This document shows positions 10,024 through 10,864 of a stretch of 64,000 nucleotides of DNA, in pieces. The stretch's first letter is position 1. Each line of letters opens with the position of its first letter. The notes under the pieces were generated by a model. It ran no database searches, had not been told where the DNA came from, and saw nothing but the letters and a program-made list of their open reading frames with translations. Source of the DNA: a virus (Duplodnaviria > Heunggongvirae > Uroviricota > Caudoviricetes). The translations under genes and the position numbers were made by a program. The stretch is from IMG/VR virus record IMGVR_UViG_2721755651_000007; one strand, written 5' to 3'.

Positions 10024-10864
10024 GGCTTCCCCCCTTGCTGACTGGTTTTACCTGTGCCCTGACGTGCTGCACGTGGCGGGCAAATTTCTGCTCCCACTGA
10101 ACCTGCGTGAAAACCTTCCCCTCCGCCATCCAGTAATCCCGGAATGCGGCAAGCTCAGCAGGTGTAAATTCCGGCTCAGGCAGAGCCATACCCCACACTG
10201 CTGCCCGTTGTCGAAAATCCGGCGACGGCTGCCAGACAGTAGTCATCGAAAATTTCCCGATCGGTTCGCTCAGGCCGTCCAGGTATTCAGGTTCGGCTGT
10301 CTGCAACGGCGCACCATTCGACTCACTGGTCGGAATACTCTCGCGCGCGTTATGTGTGGGGTTTAATTCTGTATCTGTATCTTTATCTGTATCTTTATCT
10401 GTCGTGACTTGTCGTGACAGATGCGTGACACGTCGTGACTCATCGTGACAATCAGCATTATGTTTCCGCAGCTTTTCCCGCTCCCGCTGCGCTCTCTTGC
10501 GCTCTGCCGGGGATTTTGCCGTTTGCGAAACGTTACCATTGTCCTCTTTCAGCACCTGACGTTTTTCCCATCCGGAAATAAGGTCACCATCCAGAACCCG
10601 CCCCTGCATTGCATGCAAAATTGAATCAATTACGTCTTCCGTCACATCAAGCGCACTTGCTAAATCTTCCGTCGTGACATCAATGTGACCACGTAGTGAC
10701 ACGCCGTGACATGTCGTGACATTTCGTGACGCGCTCACCAGAAGATGGATATACACTGCCATCACTGTTGCGATTGGCTGTCCTGATACCCTGGCAATCG
10801 TTCGCCACTTGGGGTCATTTGGCATGTCATGCCACAATCTGAGCCAGGCATTAGCCATACTCAC
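9815..10864 (-). CDS. O: replication initiator: O-like N-terminal domain plus DnaT-like C-terminal domain
   Basis: N-terminal HTH region, internal iteron-encoded linker, C-terminal region resembling DnaT-type domain. Confidence 0.65.
   Translation of the reverse strand: MSMANAWLRLWHDMPNDPKWRTIARVSGQPIATVMAVYIHLLVSASRNVTTCHGVSLRGHIDVTTEDLASALDVTEDVIDSILHAMQGRVLDGDLISGWEKRQVLKEDNGNVSQTAKSPAERKRAQREREKLRKHNADCHDESRRVTHLSRQVTTDKDTDKDTDTELNPTHNARESIPTSESNGAPLQTAEPEYLDGLSEPIGKFSMTTVWQPSPDFRQRAAVWGMALPEPEFTPAELAAFRDYWMAEGKVFTQVQWEQKFARHVQHVRAQVKPVSKGGSHAASGGTASRAVQEIRAAREQWERDNGFISNGNGLEAVGAHGGGVFEPLDSEERGRTFEALDCPDWCDD
10366..10460. repeat. ori-like iterons (about 10-11 bp periodic CGTGAC cores) plus AT-rich tatctgtatcttta repeats inside O; second cluster at 10668..10730
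   Basis: 5 tandem GTGAC-core repeats after an AT-rich direct-repeat tract. Confidence 0.5.

Follow-up and report, generated by a model that had tools for sequence, protein, structure and literature searches.

Organisation of the initiator locus of prophage A

The DNA analysed here, referred to as the window, is a stretch of 64,000 nucleotides from the IMG/VR virus record IMGVR_UViG_2721755651_000007, and our subject is the replication initiator gene of the first of its two prophages, which carries two arrays of short direct repeats as well as a run rich in AT within its coding sequence. Positions 9300-11700 displayed 100% identity to many O157 genomes, and the window is a piece of an Escherichia coli O157:H7 chromosome with two lambdoid prophages in tandem. 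Prophage A occupies approximately positions 1-16500, with its early region directed leftwards, and prophage B begins at approximately 20700 and extends beyond the end of the window. An earlier note on this DNA had proposed two iteron clusters inside the O gene of prophage A and a different iteron family in prophage B. The features of prophage A under study are listed below.

9815-10858, minus strand: replication initiator gene of prophage A, 347 amino acids (RefSeq WP_001262402.1)
10366-10402, minus strand: AT-rich run and putative DNA unwinding element, (GATAAA/GATACA)n on the coding strand, encoding DKDTDKDTDT
10402-10449, minus strand: predicted iteron array 1, five GTCACG units with a spacing of 10/11/10/10 bp, in linker-coding DNA (residues 138-153, CHDESRRVTHLSRQVT)
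10641-10645, plus strand (GTCAC; coding strand GTGAC): lone core in inverted orientation, within the DVTE codons and 33 nt downstream of array 2
10672-10731, minus strand: predicted iteron array 2, six GTCAC(G) units with a spacing of 11/11/10/10/10 bp
9361-9822 (long open reading frame to 10023), minus strand: lambda-P-like helicase loader gene (PF06992, 1.3e-15), directly downstream of the initiator gene

The GTGAC cores of array 1 start, on the plus strand, at 10404, 10414, 10425, 10435 and 10445, and those of array 2 at 10674, 10685, 10696, 10706, 10716 and 10726. All 11 units point the same way, reading GTCAC on the minus strand, which is the coding one; nine of them are a full CGTGAC, and the two arrays are 229 bp apart. 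Pairs of the form GTGACN{5,6}GTGAC were counted 10 times in the window, as against 0.20 expected from shuffles, with 9 of the 10 inside the arrays, and Tandem Repeats Finder (TRF) detected both arrays with a period of 10. Motif counting and spacing analysis thus bore out the two CGTGAC-core clusters at helical spacing claimed (as roughly helical) in the earlier note, with a regular 10-11 bp spacing; its coordinates for the first cluster, 10408-10460, were a few bases off and are corrected to 10402-10449 on the minus strand. That note had named codon repetition with no regularity of spacing as the finding that would count against it. The units, however, fall in all three codon frames (0,2,0,2,1 in array 1 and 0,1,2,1,0,2 in array 2) and their period is not a multiple of three, and thus they do not reflect codon or peptide repetition.

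The AT-rich repeats that had also been claimed for prophage A were found directly beside array 1. TRF detected a 12-nt repeat, TCTTTATCTGTA, in 2.9 copies at 10368-10402, and the run, at 73% AT, proved to be the gene's least stable DNA when scored in 30-mers, with a nearest-neighbour free energy (dG) of -31.6 against a gene mean of -42.7 (standard deviation 3.0). Directly after array 1, at approximately 10367, there is a mosaic joint relative to prophage B and other phages. The inverted GTGAC occurs at coding position 192 in most genes of the same repeat class (the GTCAC class, see below), where the codon is GTG in 18/18 sequences with Val at this place, as opposed to GTC for the Val codons of the arrays.

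The encoded protein, named 'DnaT-like ssDNA-binding domain-containing protein' in RefSeq, comprises a winged-helix domain resembling the N-terminal domain (NTD) of DnaD (residues 1-100), followed by a basic helix (117-135), a linker that is disordered (136-200) and, at 200-270, a DnaT-like C-domain. In an AlphaFold2 model obtained from 66 sequences the N-domain was confidently predicted (helices 2-14, 16-25, 29-45, 63-70 and 74-84; hairpin 85-94), and its fold resembles those of the DnaD-NTD and of a RepA_N plasmid initiator. Array 2 encodes the loop at residues 44-62 (ASRNVTTCHGVSLRGHIDVT), between helices 29-45 and 63-70, and the predicted local distance difference test score (pLDDT) of the loop was 66-70, as against 93-98 for the flanks; residues 46-62 formed the lower-confidence part, coinciding with what array 2 encodes. 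Array 1 and the AT-rich run encode the linker, which was disordered in the model. Both arrays occupy insertion-tolerant segments of the protein, and the array-2 loop tolerates indels of 7 residues (21 nt).

With regard to family membership, DnaT PF17948 was the sole above-threshold Pfam match of the initiators of prophages A and B at E<=0.01. No lambda-O family was among the matches at this threshold, and membership of either initiator in that family was rejected; the name 'O' used in the earlier note holds as a functional analogy and not as a family assignment. The N-domain of the prophage A initiator had no Pfam match even at E<=10, and hence belongs to neither Phage_rep_org_N nor RepA_N, and no sequence match to solved structures in the PDB. 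The fold of the DnaT-like domain matches 4ou6/6aeq, with 54-58% identity. The DnaT equivalog model of NCBIfam, NF002770, scored 94.5 bits against a cutoff of 201, its match being confined to the ssDNA-binding domain (residues 196-271), and identity of the whole protein with DnaT (primosomal protein I) was rejected on this score. Matches to PHROGs were weak ('DnaD-like helicase loader', 6e-9; 'replisome organizer', 6e-6), and some NCBI records call relatives 'phage replisome organizer'.

Selection on the arrays at the DNA level

Relatives of the gene were sampled as 49 diverse genomic loci and 80 close viral loci encoding the same N-terminal domain, with WLRLWHDMPNDPKWRTI as its hallmark. A synonymous-site test was carried out on 21 genes of the GTCAC class from gamma- and beta-proteobacteria, including Escherichia, Shigella, Serratia, Pseudomonas, Bordetella, Acidovorax, Chromobacterium, Gilvimarinus and others. 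Codon entropy was 0.32 bits in the arrays (16 codons), while a control set of 45 amino-acid-invariant codons outside the arrays displayed 1.53 bits (Mann-Whitney p = 3.7e-7). In array 1 the codons for His (CAC, 19/19), Ser (TCA, 21/21) and Val (GTC, 21/21) were frozen, as were those for Val (GTC, 21/21 at two sites), Thr (ACG, 21/21 and 20/21), Gly (GGT, 21/21), His (CAC, 20/20) and Ser (TCA, 20/21) in array 2. The resulting family consensus is GCG TCA CGN AAT GTC ACG CGN GGT CAC GNN GAT GTC ACG for array 2 and (N)GT CAC GAN GAG TCA CGC AAT GTC ACG NTA, followed by GAT AAA GAT AAA, for array 1, and the GAT AAA repeats were retained even in the Bordetella, Acidovorax and Chromobacterium loci. 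Since the array codons are frozen while the control codons are scrambled, the conserved peptides 'ASRNVTRGHxDVT' and 'CHDxSRxVTTDKDK' are, as judged by this codon comparison, translations of a DNA signal. On the same grounds the repeats are to be read as DNA signals under DNA-level selection.

The number of units was found to vary. Most relatives carry 4+3 or 4+4 units, and the window, with 6+5, differs from them by two 7-codon (21-nt) insertions, each equal to two units. Among the 80 close E. coli relatives, 6+5 units were present in 60 loci, 4+5 in 10 and 6+4 in 10, copy number shifting in two-unit steps (21 nt, 7 codons).

Co-variation of the arrays with each other and with the N-domain

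The dominant motif was then compared between the array-2 and array-1 zones of 48 genes of the family. The pairs were GTCAC/GTCAC in 24 genes, GAACG/GAACG in 11, GTAAC/GTAAC in four and none/none in nine; mismatched pairs were absent from all 48, and the same motif was thus present in both zones of 39/39 array-bearing genes. Units of the CGAACG(C) type start, counted from the start codon, at 133, 143, 153 and 163 and at 358, 368 and 378 in L034, and at 130, 140 and 150 and at 380, 390, 400 and 410 in L044; L036 and L004 are examples of GTAACG. A close comparison was offered by an Erwinia gene (L012) and its Pantoea (L026) and Enterobacter (L027) relatives, which share 63% protein identity with it. 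At homologous sites in both arrays, Val-Thr is encoded by GTC ACG in L012 and, synonymously, by GTA ACG in L026 and L027, and His CAC is replaced by AAC. A single-base switch has thus taken place in concert at seven or more sites.

The company kept by the arrays was assessed at the 23 GTCAC-class loci. At 19 of these, no homologue of the YdaT, Cro, P or initiator C-domain of prophage A was detectable within 2.5 kb; this count includes L009 and L012, which had a P-like match only. One or more of the four were present at L002, L003, L005 and L013. The N-domain was the only constant companion of the arrays and is thus the obvious candidate for the protein that binds them. Residues that discriminate between the motif classes lie in the array-encoded loop, in a 9-residue insert (108-116) and in the basic helix 117-135. 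None of them falls in helix 74-84, the recognition helix that had been considered as a candidate specificity determinant. Linked to the initiator, under selection as DNA and adjoining an AT-rich tract within the initiator gene, the repeats thus behave as would be expected of the iterons that the earlier note took them to be.

Segments matching the A-type N-domain and iterons were found in 2,129/5,426 complete E. coli genomes (~39%), at up to five places per genome. Three matching places occur in the O157 strain TR01, and effector-carrying O157:H7 prophages are among those with a matching segment.

Departures from the usual gene were also seen. In L040 (a Serratia metagenome-assembled genome) and L049 (Pantoea), each with the gene start at 2501, the same N-terminal domain is joined to a different C-terminal part with a YVYxV...VGIS.NPWAR motif, which to our eye looks GIY-YIG/T5orf172-like, and CTACGTAG-type repeats replace the usual arrays and AT-rich run. 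In L008 and L029 (Pseudomonas), and in P0109 (P. aeruginosa, 160 amino acids), the protein stops soon after the linker, leaving a stand-alone N-domain of ~160 residues. Both arrays are present in the DNA of L008 and L029, and P0109, known from the protein alone, contains the array-encoded peptides. Phage records at the place matching the short Pseudomonas protein have two adjacent hypothetical proteins.

Comparison with known origins

An origin within the initiator gene is textbook knowledge. The anatomy of the prophage A locus is of the oriλ type, with predicted iterons and a putative AT-rich unwinding element in linker-coding DNA and a P-like loader gene downstream, to which a second conserved array is added. 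As at oriλ and in 933W and P27, the proposed origin lies within the initiator gene where the N- and C-domain coding parts join, the repeats are followed by the AT-rich tract, and a P-type loader gene is located directly downstream. Lambda and the Shiga toxin (Stx) phages have their iterons and AT-rich tract in the middle of O, and in 933W/P27-type Stx phages and lambda extra iterons add residues to the O protein (PMC7466680). However, oriλ has four iterons (six in Stx phages) in a single cluster, whereas prophage A has 11 direct units in two arrays 229 bp apart. The iterons of lambda are ~19-bp dyad-symmetric sites bound by O dimers, and such dyads, 4-6 in one cluster, are absent from prophage A, whose units are direct repeats of 10-11 bp and one of whose arrays lies inside the coding sequence of a folded DNA-binding domain. 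In addition, the initiator falls outside Pfam Phage_rep_O and its C-domain is DnaT-like.

A second likeness is to the RepA_N (pSK41 Rep) and DnaD-like initiators, with which the prophage A initiator shares a DnaD-NTD-like winged-helix N-domain and repeats in the central, linker-coding part of the gene (array 1), array 2 being extra. The Rep boxes to which RepA_N initiators bind are found in the central part of the initiator gene itself (PMC5703833). A second array within the NTD-coding region of pSK41 is not mentioned in a review, and the prophage A initiator differs further in having no sequence-level membership in RepA_N, in its Gram-negative prophage setting, in its DnaT-like C-domain and in its lambda-P-like partner.

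Two arrays served by one initiator are also known. In the Bacillus phage SPP1, the replisome organizer gp38 binds two separate sets of direct repeats, oriL and oriR, both of which have an AT-rich unwinding element; oriL is located within the gp38 gene, and oriR has been proposed to act as a fork barrier (PMC6316719). SPP1 oriL and oriR are, however, ~13 kb apart and oriR is intergenic, whereas the arrays of prophage A lie within 330 bp in one gene and only one of them has an AT-rich partner. P1 (incC/incA), F (incB/incC) and phage P4 (ori/crr) have two arrays of the same repeat per rep gene, one at the origin and one with an auxiliary or regulatory role. The two-array, one-repeat organisation of these replicons was found in all of the array-bearing genes, although in P1, F and P4 the arrays are found on either side of the rep gene or are separated by kilobases, mostly in non-coding DNA and with units of 8 to 22 bp, while both arrays of prophage A are translated, in three frames. 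In the literature on this family we found no description of a second conserved array within the DNA-binding-domain coding sequence, of 10-11 bp direct units read in three frames, or of three or more specificity classes switching in concert at both arrays.

A model for the origin of prophage A

We consider it probable that the GTCAC(G) arrays are iterons bound by the N-terminal winged-helix domain encoded by their own gene, that they form the origin of prophage A together with the (GATAAA/GATACA)n run, and that array 2 is an auxiliary part of one larger complex. The data show repeats that are selected as DNA, have one motif in common between the two arrays, follow the N-domain alone and are set in an origin-like anatomy; that the initiator binds them, that the AT-rich run melts and how array 2 is used are what we infer here. 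After induction, initiator monomers would load head-to-tail on the 10-11 bp units, along one face of the helix. Array 1, with its five units adjoining the AT-rich element, would position the initiator there and the element would melt, whereupon the DnaT-like C-domain could hold the single-stranded DNA and the C-terminal region could recruit the P-like loader and host DnaB, as at oriλ (PMC7466680) and at RepA_N origins (PMC5703833). Array 2 (six units, 229 bp upstream, plus one inverted copy) would be a second, co-evolving part of the origin, most likely auxiliary, and would build a larger looped or wrapped nucleoprotein complex.

Several observations weigh against this model. Prophage A is degraded outside the initiator region, its integrase and recE being truncated and an insertion sequence of the IS3 family being present, and so this copy may not fire. 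As the N-domain has no sequence match in Pfam or the PDB, its mode of DNA binding is suggested by the fold. Three low-GC members (L023, L031 and L038) lack array 2, and before the AT-rich run they have just one or two units of a degenerate, CGAACGC-like kind. Another six members are devoid of recognisable arrays, and with these three they make up the nine of 48 mentioned above. Array 2 is therefore dispensable for the protein family and its fold, which hints at an accessory element. The inter-array distance is 195-247 bp in most members; phasing between the arrays gave R = 0.42 and p = 0.046 at 10.4 bp (Rayleigh) and was better at 10.0 bp, but this result is confounded by gain and loss of units and by shared ancestry, and looping is thus plausible and nothing firmer. 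Finally, binding or replication data, or a description of the origin of this family, were not found in the literature.

How array 2 is used is the point on which the nearest competing explanations turn. It may, as we put forward tentatively, be a functionally distinct element within the coding sequence of the initiator's DNA-binding domain, be it a roadblock or fork barrier loaded with initiator or a partner that is obligatory for looping, which sets the direction or timing of replication or its autoregulation. A related explanation, which we regard as possible but rather unlikely, is that array 1 and the AT-rich run are the whole origin and that array 2, to which this initiator would likewise bind, serves for control, acting as a roadblock that auto-represses the initiator and P genes, by titration or handcuffing in the manner of plasmid incA/incC, or, as has been proposed for SPP1 oriR, as a fork barrier for unidirectional replication or for a theta-to-sigma switch. 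That the binder would be the same follows from the equal motif, orientation and spacing of the two arrays and from their co-variation. A control function would also suit the lack of an AT-rich partner for array 2, the least stable DNA being found only at 10350-10400, and its place at 128-185 nt of the transcript, at which RNA polymerase would be blocked by an occupied array. The conserved inverted copy after array 2 and the retention of degenerate units before the AT-rich run in the three low-GC members without array 2 point in the same direction, as does SPP1, whose gp38 also binds the repeats of oriR, at which forks are thought to stall (PMC6316719). However, the joint presence or absence of recognisable arrays in the 48 genes fits a single machine at least equally well, the 195-247 bp between the arrays in most members suits local looping into one complex, and computation does not separate a control role from an auxiliary role at the origin.

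Explanations that dispense with the initiator fared worse. It is very improbable that the arrays are bound by another protein (a host protein, the phage repressor, Cro, YdaT, or a restriction-modification or recombination enzyme) or that they are recombination hot spots at mosaic joints. The GTNAC-like cores have a pseudo-palindromic form, the mosaic boundary at ~10367 coincides with array 1, and binding of the initiator to the arrays is itself a prediction, all of which would be compatible with such a view; but from Enterobacterales to Burkholderiales the arrays remain with the N-domain, whereas YdaT, Cro, P and the C-domain are replaced, motif class follows the lineage of the initiator and not the host, and array 2 lies away from any mosaic joint. 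That the repeats are a by-product of peptide or codon repetition, or of chance, can be virtually dismissed. Recurring VT, SR and GH/CH dipeptides in the encoded peptides, and the occurrence of all units in one frame in phiV10, a B-type relative, could be taken to favour it, yet three frames at a 10-11 nt period, synonymous positions that are frozen only within the arrays and the synonymous switch from GTC to GTA all contradict it. Repetition was thus ruled out by the frames and the synonymous-site test, and chance by the shuffles (10 pairs observed against 0.2 expected). The preferred reading remains that of a two-array origin bound by the initiator.

The initiator and repeats of prophage B

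Prophage B has an initiator gene of similar size with a different repeat family.

56818-57858, minus strand: initiator gene of prophage B, 346 amino acids, with an N-half unrelated to that of A and a shared DnaT-like C-half
57376-57569, minus strand: repeat array of prophage B, six ACCCAAA cores on the coding strand, in linker-coding DNA (residues 98-160)
57493-57547, minus strand: putative unwinding element of prophage B, 73% AT, dG -34.4 against a gene mean of -41.3 (standard deviation 2.9), flanked by repeat units

The two initiators share ~72% identity over their last 212 aligned residues, the homology becoming clear at about LNPTHNARES. Over its first 164 residues the B initiator displayed 100% identity to 'PPompW' prophage records. 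The N-half gave a sub-threshold match to Pfam HTH_36 (20.9 bits against a cutoff of 25), and among the PHROGs the protein matched 1032, 'replication initiation protein', at 8.8e-91 and several of those called 'replication initiation O-like' at 1e-7 to 4e-12. TTTGGGT occurs six times on one strand at 57376-57567, with a spacing of 10, 20, 22, 44 and 89 and in three codon frames, and 10 times in the whole window; the full 14-mer unit, ACACCCAAAAACGG, is found at 57401-57414 and 57556-57569. Unlike that of prophage A, the spacing is irregular, and there is a single array only.

In Edwardsiella phage EPP-1 (58% identity) a ACACCCAAAAACGG-type unit is repeated at the same place in the linker, the unit start ACACCCA being present at four sites, three of which continue to CCCAAAA. 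Related units are CCAAAAACGGGA, found 5-7 times in phiV10, and a unit of 22-nt period in Bcep176. The 80 viral loci of the B type are 98-100% identical, which leaves EPP-1, phiV10 and Bcep176 as the only informative relatives. It is plausible from these comparisons that the B array also consists of iterons, the comparative evidence being thinner than for A.

The earlier note was right that prophage B carries a different repeat family and that the two initiators differ in the array-bearing regions. As these N-halves are unrelated, distinct origin specificities of A and B are plausible on the sequences compared. Its further suggestion, that the different specificities allow tandem coexistence, was not upheld. 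With three A-type places in O157 TR01 and up to five per E. coli genome, prophages with matching modules do coexist; repressed prophages do not depend on origin compatibility.

Neighbouring genes and other features

YdaT-like and Cro-like genes lie upstream of the prophage A initiator gene. The long open reading frame of the P-like gene, from 10023, encodes 220 amino acids and overlaps the last ~70 initiator codons out of frame. RefSeq places the start at 9822, and residue 58 of the long frame, upstream of Met69, is where the match to Pfam Phage_lambda_P sets in; the annotated start, at Met69, may thus sit too far downstream. A P-like open reading frame is arranged likewise in prophage B (56364-57029). 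A scan of 9800-10900 against Rfam detected no known RNA element.

The IS3-family element of prophage A lies at ~7000-8300 of the window, with an ALIL pseudoknot at 7906-8022 on the minus strand; its OrfA-like open reading frame is, we assume, IS629/IS1203-like, and RefSeq names IS1203. The tRNA features upstream of this element are shifted by ~1.3 kb relative to the otherwise identical TR01 locus. DicF small RNA (sRNA) is found upstream of dicB in prophage A, and a 13-nt tandem pair, AAACGTTAATACC (1.9 copies), is identical in prophages A and B (side features at 13952-14003, 14182-14206 and 61134-61158). Each prophage has a sok antitoxin RNA, and the tRNA genes of prophage B are adjoined by STnc100 and the AgvB (anti-GcvB) sRNA (side features at 5255-5429, 53640-53789 and 48402-48671); sok, STnc100 and AgvB are known prophage cargo. 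Just downstream of the cI-like gene of prophage B, a 23-nt repeat, GTTTTTCTACACAAAAAGCTTAG (1.9 copies, 59133-59176), is a possible regulatory site. Near the right end of the window, also in prophage B, a 21-nt tandem repeat of ~5 copies (AACGAGCCAGAAACGCAACAA-like, 63129-63232) appears, by eye from its sequence, to encode a low-complexity stretch rich in Q, N and E.

Implications

At least three specificity classes (GTCAC, GAACG and GTAAC) can be read from the DNA, which offers a means of typing prophage replicons from sequence only. From these classes it can be predicted between which co-resident prophages cross-activation of origins could occur upon induction, and recognition of a two-part origin allows the design of ori plasmids or of recoded controls. 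If array 2 is indeed a distinct element within the DNA-binding-domain coding sequence, the loop peptide (ASRNVTRGHVDVT, as against ASNATERGRTQNV in another class) would be dictated in three frames by the sequence of the binding sites, and a change of origin specificity would thus rewrite part of the protein that reads it. To our knowledge, such an overlapping-code arrangement has not been described for phage origins. The family is also a clean natural case of a protein-coding segment set by an array of predicted DNA-binding sites, with concerted evolution of more than seven sites in two arrays.

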